Of a DNA stretch of 64,000 nucleotides, positions 6,857 through 37,144 are shown in pieces (position 1 is the stretch's first letter; the number at the start of each line of letters is the position of its first letter). This DNA is from Elusimicrobiales bacterium (GTDB lineage: Bacteria; Elusimicrobiota; Elusimicrobia; Elusimicrobiales; UBA9959): NCBI GenBank assembly GCA_031082205.1, contig JAVHLJ010000004.1:8942-72941 (forward strand). Reading direction: 5' to 3'. The notes below the pieces were generated by a model. The model saw only the letters and a list, made by a program, of their open reading frames with translations. It made no database searches and had not been told where the DNA came from. The position numbers and the translations under genes were made by a program.

Positions 6857-8097
6857 ACAAGTCCCTCGCCGCGCTCAACAAGGAATTCCCCGTCCTGAAG
6901 GCCCGCTTCTCCGGGCGCAGGCTGGTGTATCTCGACAGCGCCTGCACCGTCCTCAAGATGCGCGGCGCGGCCGACGCGCAGCGGGAGAACCTGCTGCGGC
7001 TGGGCGGCTGCGGCGGGCGCCGCTCCTTCTATTCGCTGTCCGCCGGCATGGAGGAGGAGTTCGAGTCCGCTCGGCGCGCCGTCGCGGACTTCATGGGCGC
7101 CGCTTCGCCCGACGAGGTCATCTTCGCCGGCGGCGTCACCGACGCGGCCAACCTGCTGGCCAACTCTTTTCCCTTCACGAAAGAACGCGACGAGGTGGTC
7201 CTGTCGCCGCTGGAGCATAACGCCGTTTTCCTTCCTTTCGAGCGGCTGGCCGCCGCCGGGCGGGTGAAACTGAAGGTCCTCCCGCTCAAAGGGCTCGCCC
7301 CCGACCTGGACGCCCTGCCCCGGCTGCTGGGCCGCCGCACAGCGCTGGTCTGCCTCAACCACGCCTCCAATATCTTCGGCGGCAGGCAGGAGATCCGCCG
7401 CGCGGCGGCTGTTACGCGCGCGGCCGGCGCTTATCTCTTTTCCGACGACGCGCAGTTCGCCCCCACCCACGGCTCGGGCGCCGCGGCCGAGGGGGCCGAC
7501 GCCTGCGCCTTTTCCGGCCACAAACTGGGCGCGCCCTACTGCACCGGCGCGCTTTACGTCCGCCGGGAGCTGATGGCGAAGCTGCGCCCCTGGCGCGTCG
7601 GCGGCGGCACCGTGGAGGGAGTGGAACGCGACGGAGGCTACAAGGCTAAATATATCGGCGGCAACAGGGGTTTCGAGGCCGGCGTTCAGAATTACGCCGG
7701 CGCGGCCGGCCTGGCCGCGGCGATACGGCGGCTGGAACTTGCCGGCTTCGGCAATATCCGGGCGCATGTCTCCGGGCTGGTCATGGACGCTCATGACAGG
7801 CTGTCGGCCGTAAAAGGCGTCCGCGTTCTGGGCGACCGGGCCGCCCTGGCGGAGGGCTCGCTCATATCGATAGTCCCGGAGAAACGCGGCTTCTCGGCTC
7901 AGGACTTCGCTCTCTTCCTGGACTCGAGCGTCAAAGGGCTTTCGATAGCCGTGCGCTCCGGCCGCCACTGCGCCGACCTGGCCTGCCTGGCCTCGGGCGT
8001 GAAGGAAACCCTGCGGCTGTCGTATTTCACCTACAATACGCCGGCCGACACCGAGACCTTCGCGCGGGCGCTGGAACGCTACCTGCGGATGCTCTAA
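6853..8097 (+). CDS. SufS-like PLP-dependent cysteine desulfurase (aminotransferase class V)
   Basis: ATGA overlap start. YLDSAC, EHNA, FSGHK (PLP Lys), FEAG, RSGRHCA (type II catalytic Cys). Confidence 0.85.
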   Translation: MNKSLAALNKEFPVLKARFSGRRLVYLDSACTVLKMRGAADAQRENLLRLGGCGGRRSFYSLSAGMEEEFESARRAVADFMGAASPDEVIFAGGVTDAANLLANSFPFTKERDEVVLSPLEHNAVFLPFERLAAAGRVKLKVLPLKGLAPDLDALPRLLGRRTALVCLNHASNIFGGRQEIRRAAAVTRAAGAYLFSDDAQFAPTHGSGAAAEGADACAFSGHKLGAPYCTGALYVRRELMAKLRPWRVGGGTVEGVERDGGYKAKYIGGNRGFEAGVQNYAGAAGLAAAIRRLELAGFGNIRAHVSGLVMDAHDRLSAVKGVRVLGDRAALAEGSLISIVPEKRGFSAQDFALFLDSSVKGLSIAVRSGRHCADLACLASGVKETLRLSYFTYNTPADTETFARALERYLRML

Positions 8098-31761: not shown

Positions 31762-31867
31762 CTAAATCTTATAATATCTTATGAAATTACCGGGGGCCAG
31801 CGAAAAATCCCCCGCGTCACGCAATAAAACATGACCCCCGCGCGTTACACTTATGAGAGGAGGCCCG

Positions 31868-32431
31868 ATGCTGGAAGACGCTGAACTGGTCCGGGCCTTC
31901 AATGGCGGCGACGAGGCCGCGCTGGGAGAACTGATAGCGAGGCACAGGGACAGGCTTTACGCCTACCTGCGCCGGCTGGCGGGGGACGATGCGGGAGCCG
32001 AGGATATGTTCCAGGACACTTGGATAAAGGTCGCGCGAAACATGGGCGCCTACAGGGAGGAGAACAGGTTCTCCGCCTGGCTCTTTTCGGTGGCGCGCAA
32101 CACCGCGATGGACGCGCTCAGGCGCCGCCGGCCGGAGAGCGTTTCGCTGGACGCCGCCGTGGCGGAGGACGGCAGACCGCTGGCCGAGACCATAGGTTCG
32201 GCCGAGCCGGGCCCCGAGGCGTCCTACGCGGCCGCCGAATCCCGCCGGGCCATAGACGCGGCCCTGGCGGAGCTTTCCCCGGAGCAGCGCGAAGTATTCC
32301 TGCTGAGGCATTACTCGGGAATGTCGTTCAAGGAGATAGCCGACGCCCTCGGCGTGCCGATAGGGACCGTGCTGGCCCGGGCCTCCAGGGCCGCGGCCAA
32401 ACTCAGGGACAAGCTGGCGGGGGAAATATGA
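31868..32431 (+). CDS. ECF RNA polymerase sigma factor (sigma-70 family)
   Basis: GAGGAGG RBS; DAELV, AEDMFQDTW, FSAWLFSVARN, region 4 SFKEIA..LGVPIGTV. Confidence 0.9.
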   Translation: MLEDAELVRAFNGGDEAALGELIARHRDRLYAYLRRLAGDDAGAEDMFQDTWIKVARNMGAYREENRFSAWLFSVARNTAMDALRRRRPESVSLDAAVAEDGRPLAETIGSAEPGPEASYAAAESRRAIDAALAELSPEQREVFLLRHYSGMSFKEIADALGVPIGTVLARASRAAAKLRDKLAGEI

Positions 32432-32901
32432 GCTGCGAGAAAGAAGGTAAAACGCTTTTGCTCCATTACGGCGAACTGCCCGCGGCGGAAGCCTCCGCCG
32501 CGCGCGCGCACGCGGCGGTCTGCCCGGACTGCCGCCGGCTGCTGGAAGGGCTCGGCAGGGCCGAAGCCATGCTGTCCGCTTCCGACGCCCCCGCGCCCGC
32601 CGGCCTCGCCGCGGCGGCGCTCGAGCGCGCCCTGGCCGGGAGCCAGGGGCTGTTGTCCTGGCTTTTCACTGACTGGCGCCGCGCCGCGGCTGCGGCCGCC
32701 GGCGTCATGCTTATGTTCGCCGTCTTCCGCGGCGCCGCCCCTGAGCCGGCGCAGCAGGTGGCCTCGCTGGAGATCATCGAGGAGAGCCTGGATAACCTGG
32801 AATATTCCATCTACCAGGCCCGGGTGGACTTCTCCACCCGGGAGATACAGGATTTCGACTATAAGTACGCGGATATGGAGTCGAGAAAAGAAAGCGTCTA
32901 G
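32428..32901 (+). CDS. Zinc-finger (HxxxCxxC) transmembrane anti-sigma factor
   Basis: ATGA overlap; MSC...LLHYGEL...HAAVCPDC followed by one TM helix. Confidence 0.8.
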   Translation: MSCEKEGKTLLLHYGELPAAEASAARAHAAVCPDCRRLLEGLGRAEAMLSASDAPAPAGLAAAALERALAGSQGLLSWLFTDWRRAAAAAAGVMLMFAVFRGAAPEPAQQVASLEIIEESLDNLEYSIYQARVDFSTREIQDFDYKYADMESRKESV

Positions 32902-32916
32902 TATAACGGAGGGGTT

Positions 32917-33648
32917 ATGAAGAGGCTGTTCGCGGTGTTCTTCGGTTCGCTGTTCGTTTTCGCGGCGTCGCTGCCTTACGCGGCGGCGCAGGGCGAGGGC
33001 ATGGACGAGGAGATAGAGATAGAAGAGGCGTTCGAGGGCGGCCCCGGCATGGGCCCGGGCGGCAGGCAGGGCGGCGGCCCCGGCATGCGGGGGCCCATGG
33101 GCGGCCCCGGGATGGGCGGCCCGCAGCAGCGGCAGATGAACGTCAAGGTGCGCAAGGTTATGCGCCAGGGCGAGGGAGGCCCCGGCTGGCAGGACGACGG
33201 GGGCGCCGAGGAGAAGGGCCTGGAGCTCATCAAGAAGCACGACCCTGCCTTCCACGGCAAGCTGCTCAAGCTGCGCGAATCGGCCCCGGCCAAGTATAAA
33301 ATGGCCATGCGCATGGCCGGCAAGACGCTGATCATGGCGAAGATGGACCAGGACCCGGTCCTGGAGAAGAATACCGTCCGCATGCTGGCGCTGGAATACG
33401 AGACCCGCGAGCTCGGGCTGGCCTACGAGAAGGCCAAGGACTCCGAGAAAGCGAAGATAAAGGCCGACCTCAAGAAAGGCCTCTCCGAGCTTTTCGACCT
33501 GCGCCTCGGCAACCAGGAGGTGCGCGTCAAGCGCATGGAGAAGGACCTGGCCCGCCTCAAGGCCCAGATAGATAAGCGCAAGGCCTCCAAGGCCAAGCTC
33601 GTAGAGGCGCGCCTGGAGCAGATGACCGGCGAAGCCGAGACCTGGTAA
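32917..33648 (+). CDS. Periplasmic Spy/CpxP/heavy-metal-sensor-like helical protein
   Basis: Signal peptide, Gly/Pro/Met-rich linker, coiled-coil C-half; third gene of the ECF operon. Confidence 0.6.
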   Translation: MKRLFAVFFGSLFVFAASLPYAAAQGEGMDEEIEIEEAFEGGPGMGPGGRQGGGPGMRGPMGGPGMGGPQQRQMNVKVRKVMRQGEGGPGWQDDGGAEEKGLELIKKHDPAFHGKLLKLRESAPAKYKMAMRMAGKTLIMAKMDQDPVLEKNTVRMLALEYETRELGLAYEKAKDSEKAKIKADLKKGLSELFDLRLGNQEVRVKRMEKDLARLKAQIDKRKASKAKLVEARLEQMTGEAETW

Positions 33649-33667: not shown

Positions 33668-33703
33668 AAAAAAACCCCCGCGGGGATACCGCGGGGGTTT
33701 TTT
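33668..33703. terminator. Bidirectional intrinsic terminator
   Basis: A7-CCCCCGCGG-GGATA-CCGCGGGGG-T6. Confidence 0.9.
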
Positions 33704-33720: not shown

Positions 33721-33802
33721 TTACTTTACCAGCTTGGCCGCGTCGACCATGCCGGCGCCCTGGTGGACGGGCTGAACGGCCGGGAGCTGCGTGGCCGCGC
33801 CC
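33721..33802 (-). pseudogene. Orphan original 3' end of the S8 peptidase gene (GAATQLPAVQPVHQGAGMVDAAKLVK*)
   Basis: In-frame copy of the S8 C-terminus with its own TAA, followed 17 nt later by the terminator. Confidence 0.85.
33731..33802. repeat. 72-bp perfect direct repeat, copy 1
   Basis: Identical by eye to 34883..34954. Confidence 0.95.
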
Positions 33803-33885
33803 AGGAGCCTGTCCGACATAAGCAATTTCAGCTGCAATTGCCGCTTTTGGCCTGCGCCCTTGCGCCGCTCGACTCGCAGGCTCCT
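33803..33885. mobile_element. 83-bp MITE/IS-end-like element with 9-bp terminal inverted repeats
   Basis: AGGAGCCTG ... CAGGCTCCT; the right end lies in CTAG; no transposase. Confidence 0.45.
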
Positions 33886-34597
33886 AGGACCATAGATGTT
33901 TAATGGTGGTCGAAATGTTCATAAGGGAGTGCAGCAATATGGTGAGGCGGATGTCCGATTTCGCCTCGTAGATCGCCGTGATGTAGCACGAAAATAGAAA
34001 TACGATCCAACCGCTCTCTTGATGAAGCGCCGAGAACAGGATCGAAACAAAGAGAACGGCCGGAACGGGGCTCAGAACGCTTCTCATTCGTGTATATATA
34101 AAGCGGCGGAACAAGAGCTCCTCTCCTACTGGGGCGAATATGCACGCGGATATCAGAAAGAGCGCGGATAATATCGGGGCGGCGGAGGGATCTGCCGCGA
34201 GGATGCCGCCGGAGGCGTCCCCCGATATGGCGACCCTAATCGCCGCAGGCGTTAATGAATCCGGCAGTTTTTCGGCAAGGAAGAGCAGTAATGACGCTCC
34301 ACCATAGTAGAGGGCGAAAAGCTTTGCCGACGCGAACAAGGCGGAAAAGAACCTCGTTTTCCAGTGGGAAAGCGTGAATTCCGGTTCCAGTCTTTTAAAG
34401 TATCTGTAAGCGAGGCCGGCCGCCACGATGCTTTGCGCTGAGAGGTAGAAGAGGGTCGATTCTTCGCGGCTCAATTGAGATCCAAGGTGCCGCATGATCA
34501 TGAATCCGCATGCGAAAATAAGAGCGGAAACGAAGATTATTTGCGCGACAAGAATCAATACGTCTGCCAGCGGGGGCGGGGCGGGTTTGTTTGTCAT
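33884..34597 (-). CDS. CPBP (CAAX protease / Abi) family intramembrane metalloprotease
   Basis: GEELLFR, FSALH and LHSLMN motifs; multiple TM helices; AT-richer than the flanks. Confidence 0.85.
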   Translation of the reverse strand: MTNKPAPPPLADVLILVAQIIFVSALIFACGFMIMRHLGSQLSREESTLFYLSAQSIVAAGLAYRYFKRLEPEFTLSHWKTRFFSALFASAKLFALYYGGASLLLFLAEKLPDSLTPAAIRVAISGDASGGILAADPSAAPILSALFLISACIFAPVGEELLFRRFIYTRMRSVLSPVPAVLFVSILFSALHQESGWIVFLFSCYITAIYEAKSDIRLTILLHSLMNISTTIKHLWS

Positions 34598-34612
34598 GCC
34601 GGGTGTCGGGCC

Positions 34613-34653
34613 AAAAGAAAAAGGGGAGGAGATTCTCCTCCCCTTTTTCTTTT
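34613..34653. terminator. Perfect 19-bp inverted repeat / terminator after the S8 gene
   Basis: AAAAGAAAAAGGGGAGGAG-ATT-CTCCTCCCCTTTTTCTTTT. Confidence 0.8.
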
Positions 34654-34662
34654 GATATCAGG

Positions 34663-36075
34663 CTACTGCGCCCGCTGGATGTTGTGCAGGATTTCGGTCT
34701 GACTGTAAGGGTGCGGTTGCGGTGAGCTGGGCTGTTGCTGCGGCGCTTCGCCGTTGCCGCTCGGCCGCGGGATATTTATATCCGGGCAGCCGGTGGTGAC
34801 ACAGGCGTATACATAGTTTGCCACTACTCCGCCGGCCACGGTCCAAGCGAACGCCCCCGGGTTTTTGGCCGCCGCCGGGATGAGCTTGGCCGCGTCGACC
34901 ATGCCGGCGCCCTGGTGGACGGGCTGAACGGCCGGGAGCTGCGTGGCCGCGCCCTTGAGCGCCTCGCGCACGGCTTCCGCGCCGGTATTGCCGGCTTCCA
35001 CCGCCAGCGCCGCCAGGCCCGCCGCGTGGGGGCTGGCCATCGAGGTGCCGGACATGCTGGTGTAGCCGCCGCCGCGCCTGGTCGAGTAGACGCTCACGCC
35101 GGGGGCGATGACCGCTATCTCGGGGCCGCGGGAGGAGAAGGAGGCTATGCTGTCGTTGGAGGCGCTGGCCGAGACGGCTATGGCCTCCGGGTAGCGGGCC
35201 GGGAAGTTGACCGCGCCCGAGTCGTTGCCCGCGGCGCAGACTATGGCGATGCCGGCCTTGTGGGCGACCTTCATGACCTCGGCGAGAGCGGCGGTGCCGC
35301 TGCGGCCGCCCAGGCTCATGTTGATGACCTGCATCTTGTTCTCCACGGCCCACTCGATGCCGGCGACGATCCAGGAATACTGGCCGGAGCCGTTCTTGTC
35401 GAGGACCTTGACGCCGTAGAGCTCGGCGCGGGGGGCCACGCCGGCCACGCCCTTGCCGTCGCGCACCGCGCCGACCGTGCCGGCCACGTGCGTGCCGTGG
35501 CCCTGGTCGTCCATCGGGTCGCTGGTCTGGGTGACCGCGTTCCAGCCGCCCTTGTAGTTGGGGGCCAGGTCGGGGTGGGTGTAGTCTATGCCGGTGTCTA
35601 TCACGGCGACTTTGACGCCGGCGCCGGTGACGTAGGGCCAGGCGCCGGCGGCGTTAACGCGCTTTACGCCCCAGGGCAGCTCGGCGTCCTCCTGCCTGGT
35701 GAAGGAGAGGACCGGCTCGGCGGCCGGGGTCTCGAGTTCGCCCGCGGAGGCCAGAACGGACTCCAGGGTCGGCAGGGGGGAGGCCTGCAGCGAGGCTTCG
35801 TTGAGCCAGGGCAGGTAGAGGTCGTCCTCGACGTTGGTCACGCCCTTGAGCGACCAGATCTTGAAATCCTTGACGTCCTCGGGGAAGACGGCCGCGACGG
35901 CGCCTATGAGCTTGAGCTCGCGCTCCACGGTGCCGCCGAGGCTGTTTATCTGGACGAACTTCTCCGACGACTTCATGTGCCTGTCGAACGTCACTATCTT
36001 GTTTCCGCCGGCGAAAGCCGATGCCGCGAAGGACAGGGCCAGTACCAGCGCTAACGCTATTTTAAGACGCTTCAT
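34663..36075 (-). CDS. Secreted S8 subtilisin-like serine protease with I9 propeptide and an acquired 72-aa C-terminal tail
   Basis: Signal peptide; VAVIDTG (Asp), GHGTHVAG (His), AAGN, GTSMASPH (Ser). Confidence 0.95.
   Translation of the reverse strand: MKRLKIALALVLALSFAASAFAGGNKIVTFDRHMKSSEKFVQINSLGGTVERELKLIGAVAAVFPEDVKDFKIWSLKGVTNVEDDLYLPWLNEASLQASPLPTLESVLASAGELETPAAEPVLSFTRQEDAELPWGVKRVNAAGAWPYVTGAGVKVAVIDTGIDYTHPDLAPNYKGGWNAVTQTSDPMDDQGHGTHVAGTVGAVRDGKGVAGVAPRAELYGVKVLDKNGSGQYSWIVAGIEWAVENKMQVINMSLGGRSGTAALAEVMKVAHKAGIAIVCAAGNDSGAVNFPARYPEAIAVSASASNDSIASFSSRGPEIAVIAPGVSVYSTRRGGGYTSMSGTSMASPHAAGLAALAVEAGNTGAEAVREALKGAATQLPAVQPVHQGAGMVDAAKLIPAAAKNPGAFAWTVAGGVVANYVYACVTTGCPDINIPRPSGNGEAPQQQPSSPQPHPYSQTEILHNIQRAQ
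34883..34954. repeat. 72-bp perfect direct repeat, copy 2 (inside the S8 gene)
   Basis: Identical by eye to 33731..33802; offset 1152 bp. Confidence 0.95.
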
Positions 36076-36200: not shown

Positions 36201-37091
36201 TCAGCGGCTTCCTTTGACCAGGCTGGTGTCGAATTTATAGACGATGCCGCTGACTTCGGGGTTGGACATGAGCGTGGACATCAGCATCGGGTCCTGCATC
36301 GCCATGCTTATGAGGTCCGGGTTCGAATTGACCAGGTCGGCCACCGCCGCCGGGTCCTTCATCAGCTGCCTGCCGGCCGGGGTGTCGAGCAGCGCGGCGA
36401 CCATGCCGCTGGAGGCGACGGCGCTGACCACGGCGGGGTTGTTCAGGGCGGCTTTAACCACCGGGTTGTTGACGAAATTGGCGGGGCCGGGGCCTTTCAG
36501 GTACTCTTTGAGCGCCTCGGGGCTGGAGGTGGCCTGTTTTACCGTGGAGCGGGCCATGAAGCCTTCCACCACGTACTTGTTGTTGAGAAGCGCTTTGACC
36601 GCGGCCGGGCTCTTCATCGCGGCCCCGACGGCCTTGGTCAGGTAGCCGGTCTGATGGCCCACGGACATCTGCTCCCGCTTCCTTATATCGTCCATGTCCG
36701 GGCGCTGCACGCCCGCCGCGGCGGCTTTGGCCGCCGACATTCCGGAAGAGCCCTTGCCGGCCCCGCCGGAGCCTTCCGGCGCCGCCGTCCCCCGGCCCCC
36801 GGTTCCCCCGGACTCTCCGCCTGCGCGCACCAGGGGCTTTTCCGGGGCTTCCCCGCCGGTGCGGTAGCGCACGCGCAGCACGCCGTCCACGAATTCGGGT
36901 TCGGTAAGCTCGCCCCAGTTCTTTATCTCTCCCTCCGACGAGGCGAAGGCGCCGTAGTCCTCCTGGGACATCTCCAGGTCCCCCGCCTTCATCTGCATGC
37001 TCCACCTGGCCAGCGGCCAGAGCAGCAGCAGGTATACCGGGGTGAGGTAGATCCAGATGCGCCAGCCGGACTTTTTTTCCTGGTTCTCCAT
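36201..37091 (-). CDS. Hypothetical single-pass membrane protein
   Basis: Start moved to ATG 37091 (MENQEKK); N-terminal TM helix, low-complexity linker, helical C-half. Confidence 0.7.
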   Translation of the reverse strand: MENQEKKSGWRIWIYLTPVYLLLLWPLARWSMQMKAGDLEMSQEDYGAFASSEGEIKNWGELTEPEFVDGVLRVRYRTGGEAPEKPLVRAGGESGGTGGRGTAAPEGSGGAGKGSSGMSAAKAAAAGVQRPDMDDIRKREQMSVGHQTGYLTKAVGAAMKSPAAVKALLNNKYVVEGFMARSTVKQATSSPEALKEYLKGPGPANFVNNPVVKAALNNPAVVSAVASSGMVAALLDTPAGRQLMKDPAAVADLVNSNPDLISMAMQDPMLMSTLMSNPEVSGIVYKFDTSLVKGSR

Positions 37092-37144
37092 AAGGGTAAA
37101 TATGATATAACACCAATTGAGGCGCGCTGTCAATACGCGGAGAT

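Follow-up and report, generated by a model that had tools for sequence, protein, structure and literature searches.

The 64,000-nucleotide stretch of an Elusimicrobiales genome analysed here (the window; GenBank assembly GCA_031082205.1, contig JAVHLJ010000004.1, positions 8,942 to 72,941 of the forward strand) carries on its minus strand a gene for a secreted S8 subtilase that reads in frame into an extra C-terminal peptide, tail C, and is followed by a gene for a CPBP-type intramembrane protease homolog, CPBP-237. Tail and CPBP gene lie together on an inserted segment bounded by a repeat of the subtilase 3' end, and from the sequences of related Elusimicrobia the site is very probably a cassette-swapping locus, in which C-terminal modules are exchanged by recombination. 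The full account, in which the window is one allele of a recombination-driven C-terminal cassette locus with tails that function as toxins and CPBP proteins that function in immunity, is given a probability of about 0.5.

Foreign cassettes recombine into the subtilase gene at the junction ..GAGMVDAAKL, most cassettes being a short tail with an even number of cysteines, read in frame from the subtilase, together with its own downstream partner gene. The incoming cassette displaces the earlier end of the gene, which is left behind downstream as an orphan that has 17-88 nt of subtilase homology and no start, and recombination between the subtilase-end repeats changes the tail that is expressed. 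In the window it is tail C and its CPBP that occupy the expressed position, with the native ..LVK* end orphaned. The features of the locus are as follows, where numbers beginning with L are handles for the loci and contigs compared.

34663-36075, minus strand: open reading frame (ORF) of the S8 subtilase, 470 aa (Peptidase_S8, Pfam PF00082, E=1.6e-61, domain 151-388)
34882-36075, minus strand: conserved subtilase core, residues 1-398, with signal peptide, propeptide and S8 catalytic domain
34883-34960, minus strand: first copy of the direct repeat, formed by the final 78 nt of native subtilase coding sequence ahead of the junction
34663-34881, minus strand: tail C, residues 399-470 (72 codons and a stop), in frame after ..AAKL
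34612-34654, both strands: perfect 21-nt inverted repeat with A and T runs at its flanks, between tail C and the CPBP gene
33884-34597, minus strand: CPBP/Rce1-like intramembrane glutamic protease homolog, 237 aa (PF02517, E=3.5e-16)
33809-33883, minus strand: 3' spacer of the cassette, from the CPBP stop to repeat copy 2, with no counterpart in empty-site relatives and present in L004-L008
33721-33808, minus strand: displaced native subtilase end, a start-less orphan made up of repeat copy 2 (33731-33808) and ..L-V-K-stop (33721-33730)
33669-33703, both strands: native intrinsic terminator of the subtilase gene, kept past the displaced end (15-nt perfect inverted repeat, terminator scan match)

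The carrier gene and the inserted segment

Peptidase_S8 is the sole Pfam domain in the 470-aa protein, the catalytic residues D160/H193/N284/S345 are intact and are invariant across the subtilases compared, and the protein begins with a Sec-type signal peptide (MKRLKIALALVLALSFAASAFA|GG). The core has its C-terminal limit at the ..GAGMVDAAKL junction and is 83-91% identical to the ~400-aa orthologs found at syntenic loci in Elusimicrobia. The best 120 homologs are all from Elusimicrobia assemblies, are 386-415 aa in length and cover 79-85% of the query; as 120/120 stop short of the tail, the tail is an addition to the subtilase. By its homologs the carrier can be described as a syntenic S8 subtilase with a Sec signal that is restricted to a narrow Elusimicrobia clade. 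The initial annotation had described a subtilase with an extra tail beside a CPBP gene, and the ORFs, the Pfam matches and the 120 shorter homologs all bear this out.

The insert is 1,074 bp long (33809-34882), enters after codon L398 and consists of tail C, a hairpin, the CPBP gene and the spacer, with nucleotide homology to relatives breaking off exactly at 34883 and picking up again at 33808. The two repeat copies (34883-34960 and 33731-33808) match at 76/78 positions with a spacing of 1152, and because this repeat of the subtilase 3' end flanks the insert, the native end (..AAKLVK*) now lies downstream of the CPBP gene. This displaced end reads ..GAATQLPAVQPVHQGAGMVDAAKLVK*, which is the same as the C-terminus of the 400-aa protein of the close relative L004 and aligns with the gene ends of L011/L012; in L009, L011 and L012 the stop codon is followed by the conserved native terminator as well. 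The insert is also compositionally foreign, with GC content at third codon positions (GC3) of 0.92 in the subtilase core, 0.75 in tail C and 0.64 in CPBP-237, the neighbouring genes having 0.82-0.91. Thus the 78-nt direct repeat around the insert and the drop in GC3 confirm an earlier suggestion that the tail was acquired, and the tail is indeed coupled genetically to the CPBP gene, the two belonging to one acquired cassette. Viral contigs, plasmids and phages gave no match to the cassette or its CPBP, and nothing therefore points to a phage or plasmid as its source.

A repeat-flanked cassette is also what would be seen if the fusion were an assembly artefact, in which the assembler had threaded into the subtilase gene a 1.15-kb loop with a repeat in common with the chromosome, and the Logan contigs of ~1.1 kb break inside the repeat, leaving the upstream side out of sight. 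Such an error is nevertheless highly improbable. Both junctions (repeat into tail C and spacer into repeat) are present in independent runs, with Logan contigs L005 and L006 carrying the cassette at 99.8-100% identity including both junction sequences, whilst the right-hand junction lies within a 19-kb contig of L004. Furthermore the repeat copies differ at 2/78 positions, and equivalent fusions of other tails are found in four unrelated data sets (L010, L089, L173 and L174).

Tail C reads IPAAAKNPGAFAWTVAGGVVANYVYACVTTGCPDINIPRPSG..., with ..MVDAAKLIPAAAK.. as the peptide across the junction of core and tail. The stretch rich in G, A and V, the CxxxxC motif and the Pro/Gln linker that had been noted from the sequence are all present, the cysteines being C425-x4-C430 and the end rich in Pro and Gln, with 40 hydrophilic residues after the cysteine pair (..HNIQRAQ). 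The tail has a net charge of 0 and a KD19 maximum of 1.41, which is not hydrophobicity of transmembrane (TM) grade.

Between tail C and the CPBP gene, the inverted repeat forms a hairpin with a predicted RNA fold of -36.5 kcal/mol (z=-5.9), for which an intrinsic-terminator scan is positive on both strands, and which leaves 14 nt ahead of the upstream ATG of the CPBP gene. An integron or attC-like role for this hairpin was rejected, as it lies within the cassette and away from the cassette boundary, and as the subtilase fragments on the flanks range in length from 17 to 88 nt. The motifs of CPBP-237 are intact, with EExxxR as EELLFR (159), FxxxH as FSALH (188) and HxxxN as HSLMN (223). The source annotation calls the protein 205 aa from Met33 (P0121), and GCA_040752315.1 and Logan contigs give 237 aa for the identical gene, which leaves the true start in doubt; the point is of some weight, as just 14 nt lie between the hairpin and the upstream ATG. 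The window CPBP does not reach any NCBIfam cut-off (best MrtJ with 29.4 bits vs 75, then MrtS with 22.2 vs 130), a word-index search with it found no homolog at E<=1e-3 except itself, and a sigma-70 promoter scan of the locus found none.

Cassette states in related Elusimicrobia

The strains compared are those with a subtilase at least 83% identical to that of the window. The site is empty in L011/L091, L012, L090, L170 and L171, where a convergent gene of 240-247 aa directly follows the subtilase. Orthologs at 61% identity or less have no cassette either, therefore the tail-less state is ancestral for the subtilase family.

L004 (GCA_040752315.1) has 97.5% nucleotide identity to the window. 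Its subtilase keeps the native end and terminator, and downstream of these are three CPBP genes and three further fragments of the S8 end. The first downstream piece is a 22-nt subtilase fragment in frame with a 70-codon orphan tail, tail 1 (..LFGAGVACLSDSDCNG..), which is followed in order by CPBP-229, CPBP-239, a 45-nt subtilase fragment and an ISL3 element; beyond the element are the CPBP of the window (100% identical) and then an 88-nt subtilase fragment with the native stop. The element is an insertion sequence of the ISL3 family (L004:6624-7981, transposase 6874-8004, DDE_Tnp_ISL3 E=1.4e-70) with a junction that corresponds to window position 34625, so placed that it has a subtilase-end fragment on one side and the cassette hairpin's 3' half on the other, with tail C missing, and the same junction recurs in the Logan contigs L007 and L008.

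A third tail type, tail 3, is paired with CPBP-239 and is found in a range of states. In L010 a 461-aa subtilase is fused to it (..VCKWVVQSIISGMIWDGVKWVYQYTTQNVYVCETP..) and CPBP-239 lies 22 nt further on, and in L173/L174 the fused tail is a diverged tail 3, again followed by CPBP-239, with L173 also having a displaced subtilase end downstream, which is the layout of the window. In L024/L175 and L172 the subtilase has its native end and terminator, after which 17-22 nt of subtilase sequence run in frame into an orphan tail 3 that has no start, with CPBP-239 next. The arrangement in L001-L003/L009 is the same except that tail 3 is reduced to its last ~20 codons, the CPBP-239 gene remaining intact. 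At one end of the L172 contig (L172:1-97) a sequence unrelated to the subtilase (..LSIDWGPWK) runs in frame into GAGMVDAAKLAK*; given its place at the contig end, it may flank another cassette, belong to a different carrier gene or stem from a chimeric join.

Two further loci carry other cargo. L089 has a 427-aa subtilase with a 27-residue tail containing four cysteines, tail 4, after which come a gene for a secreted 355-aa protein of unknown family and a 25-nt repeat of the subtilase end. In L169 the subtilase end is altered over ~9 residues (..GMVDAKILAKIPQP*) and is followed by a 4.1-kb island and then by a repeat of the subtilase end. The island (L169:8557-12300) contains two ORFs of 396 and 260 aa with sub-threshold similarity to Peptidase_M74/MepA and with Cys-rich C-termini, as well as a 303-aa ORF with an FG-GAP match at the Pfam cut-off, a 119-aa ORF and what is left of a frameshifted CPBP-239 gene, and may be further cargo of an antagonism type.

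Taken over all these loci, there are at least four unrelated tails, each with two or four cysteines and 27-75 residues long, which are either fused after ..GAGMVDAAKL(V)(K) or lie downstream as start-less orphans. The pairs of tail and partner are C with CPBP-237, 1 with CPBP-229, 3 with CPBP-239 and 4 with the 355-aa ORF, at gaps of 6-111 nt. Pairwise comparison of the four tail types gave no significant similarity (NYVYAC..PDINIP vs NVYVCETPSADIPP, E=11), and the three CPBPs are mutually very divergent, with 25% identity between CPBP-237 and CPBP-239 over just 76 aa; the CPBP-239 family is restricted to this clade. It had been asked whether similar tails co-occur with CPBP genes, and by analogy they do, in that three unrelated tails with a cysteine pair each stand directly upstream of a CPBP gene of their own, although the partner of the fourth is not a CPBP. 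With subtilase fragments of 17 to 88 nt at the flanks and a fusion that comes after L, LV or LVK, the exchange is likely to be by homologous or illegitimate recombination and not by a site-specific enzyme.

Coding status and origin of the tails

The best case for coding is tail 3, for which four variants are available with 50-79% amino-acid identity, dS >1 and dN/dS of 0.11-0.36. These differ by in-frame indels, share an invariant C-x28-C and a core of DGVKWV.(Q/K)Y..(Q/E).(V/E)YVC, and have the stop codon 6-22 nt ahead of the CPBP-239 start; mismatches pile up at third codon positions (8/5/28 for L010 vs L172). Judged by these substitution patterns tail 3 is under purifying selection, and tails of this kind are evidently real coding sequence.

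For tail C the GC content at the three codon positions (0.64/0.54/0.75) is of a coding type and is nearer to that of the CPBP gene than to that of the S8 core, and the frame closes 65 nt ahead of the CPBP start. The open frame of tail C is by itself weak evidence, as 17% of shuffles of its DNA are also without a stop; the corresponding values for the three long tails are 0.17, 0.06 and 0.03, and the joint probability that all three are open is ~3e-4. Another reading frame is likewise free of stops across the tail and a large part of the subtilase gene (window 34658-35353, minus strand, a 231-aa ORF), which looks like an effect of high GC and shows that in this genome an open frame counts for little on its own.

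It is apparent that the cassettes have a history of their own. In the genome pair L010/L024 the dS of the cassette is 1.0-1.2 (tail 3 and CPBP-239) vs 0.32 for the subtilase, and the GC3 of all cargo is 0.47-0.75 vs 0.90-0.92 for the subtilase. On these divergence and composition values the history of the cassettes is deeper than that of the carrier, with tail and partner forming one foreign unit. All of the tails have two or four cysteines and KD19 maxima of 0.28-1.41, none being of TM grade.

Searches for relatives of the tails found little. Sequence searches with tail C found no homolog beyond its identical copies, and HMMER against 1.84 billion cluster representatives found just three low-complexity repeat matches, a search limited in that tails fused to subtilases are hidden inside subtilase clusters. 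The initial annotation had counted a lack of homologs and of a codon signature against its proposal; tail C has a coding-type composition and no homologs. Neither the tails nor the partner genes matched toxin or immunity families. With PADLOC there was no match to a defence system for the CPBPs or the 355-aa partner, and an anti-phage reading of 'Abi' was rejected. The literature searched contains no description of a subtilase whose peptide tails are exchanged and accompanied by CPBP genes.

These data also bear on the idea that the 3' end of the subtilase gene is a mere recombination hot spot for small islets, tail C being non-functional read-through and the subtilase unchanged or slightly worse for it. 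The heterogeneous cargo would agree with this, with an end altered over ~9 residues before the 4.1-kb island in L169 and a non-CPBP partner in L089, as would the 72-codon frame that stays open in 17% of shuffles, the second frame open over the tail, and a tail C that has no homologs, no confident AlphaFold2 fold and a terminator directly after it. What makes the idea rather improbable is that the tail 3 family is under purifying selection in the fused frame, and that three independent long tails are open, with their stops 6-65 nt before the partner, at the low joint shuffle probability given above. In addition the number of cysteines is even in all tails, the GC1/2/3 of tail C is of a coding type close to that of its CPBP, and the orphans hold a subtilase fragment in frame with the tail.

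Putative toxin and immunity function

If the tails are functional modules of the subtilase, the cassette account can be extended to what they do. The fusion protein would be exported by Sec, the tail would form a disulfide and be cut off, possibly by the subtilase itself, and the released tail may then be an antagonistic peptide directed at neighbouring cells. Protection of the producer would come from the cognate CPBP, located in the inner membrane, in the way that Abi/CPBP proteins do for some class II bacteriocins, and strains that have CPBP genes and no expressed tail would be immune non-producers. Such a toxin and immunity function is plausible and the genetics fit it. CPBP-239 is full length with a dN/dS of 0.17-0.38 in strains in which tail 3 is start-less or truncated, and L004, with no tail expressed, has three CPBP genes. 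Retention without the toxin is the usual pattern of orphan immunity genes and would be unexpected for an enzyme deprived of its sole substrate, therefore a CPBP kept intact where no tail is expressed favours immunity over processing.

Processing is an alternative role to immunity. The CPBP could be a dedicated processing, maturation or anchoring partner that cleaves the extension near its cysteines, so that the subtilase is released, activated or tethered to the membrane, on the model of SagE/MroQ-type peptide maturation and of Haft's CPBP 'Mrt' sorting systems. The best NCBIfam matches of all three CPBPs include MrtJ, MrtS and MroQ, the catalytic motifs are intact, each of the three tails has its own adjacent CPBP, and processing roles are documented for bacterial CAAX proteases (PMC9298176). 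Yet the NCBIfam scores are 29-44 bits vs cut-offs of 75-270, and the tails do not have a sorting signal, being without a TM-grade helix (KD19 maximum 1.41) or a terminal basic cluster, with the 40 hydrophilic residues of tail C lying beyond its cysteine pair. One tail is paired with a gene that is not a CPBP, and purifying selection on CPBP-239 continues where tail 3 is truncated or start-less, that is where the substrate is gone. A processing partner is thus judged unlikely here.

A number of points weigh against the toxin and immunity reading. All of its support comes from genetic layout and sequence. The charges of tail C (0) and tail 1 (-7) are unlike those of typical cationic peptides, tail C is known from identical copies alone (L005/L006), which precludes an estimate of selection, and in the AlphaFold2 model of the 470-aa protein the core is confident whilst the tail has a pLDDT of 36-55, with a helix predicted at 406-428. 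Pfam searches with the isolated tails gave MccV as the best match for tail C (E=0.11, 13.5 bits vs a cut-off of 27) and nothing for the others, and a PDB sequence search with the tails also found nothing. The strong terminator-like hairpin that splits tail C from the CPBP gene makes expression of the latter hard to explain. These are diderm bacteria in which just the Sec signal is evident, with no outer-membrane route or route of entry to the target cell identified, and an ABC/C39 exporter was absent among the neighbouring genes scanned; pseudopilin-type genes do lie nearby in relatives. The site takes heterogeneous cargo (the 355-aa unknown gene, the 4.1-kb island with MepA-like genes, the insertion sequence), one cassette partner is not a CPBP (the 355-aa gene of L089), and in L169 the CPBP-239 gene is degraded to a frameshifted remnant. 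Finally, tail and CPBP are discordant in L172, where the tail is 79% identical to that of L010 and the CPBP is 85% identical to that of L024. Tail and CPBP thus do not co-evolve tightly in the tail 3 and CPBP-239 family, and the discordance points to recombination between tail and CPBP within this cassette family.

The proposal of a bacteriocin-like tail with a CPBP for immunity, made in the initial annotation, therefore survives in part. The layout of the orphan cassettes and the retention of CPBP genes agree with it, whereas an uncharged tail, the lack of a double-glycine leader and the lack of an ABC exporter among the scanned neighbours do not, and the tail has no significant match to a bacteriocin family, the best hit (MccV) falling below the cut-off.

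The locus is laid out like a polymorphic toxin locus in which genes of the Abi/CPBP type take the place of the immunity gene. As in polymorphic toxins (CdiA-CT/CdiI, Rhs, MafB and the class exported by Sec or a type II secretion system (T2SS)), an exported conserved protein, here with a core 83-100% identical, varies at its C-terminus beyond a fixed junction, each C-terminal variant has a specific gene immediately downstream, start-less orphan modules carry a piece of the conserved coding sequence (L004, L024/L175/L172 and the displaced ends in the window, L173 and L089), and modules of foreign base composition are swapped by recombination. The differences are as clear. The variable parts here are peptides of 27-75 residues with cysteine pairs and not enzymatic toxin domains, the carrier is an ordinary syntenic subtilase of ~400 aa that is ancestrally without a C-terminal module, and the partners are polytopic CPBP proteases and not soluble immunity proteins. 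Nor is there a type V, VI or VII secretion system (T5SS/T6SS/T7SS) or an RHS or filamentous delivery region, and the toxicity is putative. The features at the locus that relate to delivery are the signal peptide and the in-built S8 peptidase; Zhang et al. 2012 (PMC3482391) list subtilisin as one of the peptidases that Sec-dependent polymorphic toxins carry for their own processing.

Secreted S8 peptidases are also known from the S8-PTS of Gram-positive bacteria, in which the peptidase activates a diffusible toxin (PMC9424270, Li, Tan & Zhang 2022; PMC13556192, Mwangi et al. 2026). These resemble the present locus in that a secreted S8 peptidase is tied genetically to a polymorphic module and a putative immunity gene, with proteolytic activation proposed. 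Yet S8-PTS have one gene each for the peptidase, the BetaH-toxin protein and the immunity protein, with nucleases and enzymes of that sort as toxins (PMC9424270, PMC13556192), whilst here peptidase and variable module are parts of one protein, a BetaH domain is lacking, no further gene separates the subtilase gene from the CPBP gene, and the partner is a CPBP.

CAAX/CPBP proteins are reported as bacteriocin immunity factors in PMC9298176 (citing Kjos et al. 2010), and the same source reports bacterial members in bacteriocin loci as processing enzymes and receptors, so family membership alone does not decide the role of the partner. Like class II bacteriocin and microcin loci with Abi immunity, the locus has a small, partly amphipathic peptide capable of forming a disulfide directly upstream of a CPBP with intact motifs, and orphan CPBP genes accumulate in non-producers. 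Unlike those of class II bacteriocins, the peptide is the C-terminus of a protease with no double-glycine or Sec leader of its own, the orphans are start-less, the tails are not cationic and have no significant similarity to bacteriocin families (MccV, E=0.11), and the host is a diderm member of the Elusimicrobia and not of the Firmicutes. In the Mrt sorting systems (MrtJ/JDVT-CTERM, MrtS/Synerg-CTERM and the myxosortases) a CPBP gene likewise stands beside a single protein with a Cys-containing C-terminal extension, and Mrt families are the best, though weak, NCBIfam matches, with the window CPBP and its two sisters below cut-off. The tails differ from the extensions of Mrt targets in having no signal of motif, TM helix and basic cluster and in being hypervariable between strains, and the CPBP persists without its target.

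It may be, and this is put forward tentatively from sequence comparison, that an ordinary secreted subtilase of diderm bacteria has been co-opted as both carrier and releasing enzyme for interchangeable disulfide peptides, with CPBPs as the cognate immunity proteins. If this is true, the locus would be an undescribed hybrid of polymorphic toxins and Abi-protected bacteriocins. Were the tails antagonistic, the logic of polymorphic toxins would extend to very small peptide payloads on an ordinary protease carrier in a poorly studied uncultured phylum, and the pairs of peptide and CPBP (C with CPBP-237, 1 with CPBP-229 and the tail 3 variants with CPBP-239) would form a natural set that can be cross-tested for how a CPBP recognises what it gives immunity to. 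The modes proposed for bacteriocin immunity by Abi/CPBP proteins are proteolysis, sequestration and receptor masking. Even without toxicity the locus is a clean case of C-terminal cassette switching through short-homology recombination, and it carries a warning for annotation, as gene calling can easily go wrong on the 470-aa fusion, on the start-less orphans and on the displaced gene end.

The genes around the subtilase locus can be described briefly. Directly upstream of the subtilase (window 36201-37133, minus strand) is a gene for a 310-aa protein with sub-threshold matches to UBQLN1 and STI1-HOP DP, and its position beside the subtilase is kept in all close relatives compared. On the plus strand (window 31853-33648) are a gene for an ECF sigma factor (31853-32431) and then a probable anti-sigma gene, the versions of which in relatives contain zf-HC2. 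A 243-aa protein encoded next, at window 32917-33648 (plus strand) and convergent with the subtilase locus, has GPGM-type repeats and a C-terminal half that is like a coiled coil.

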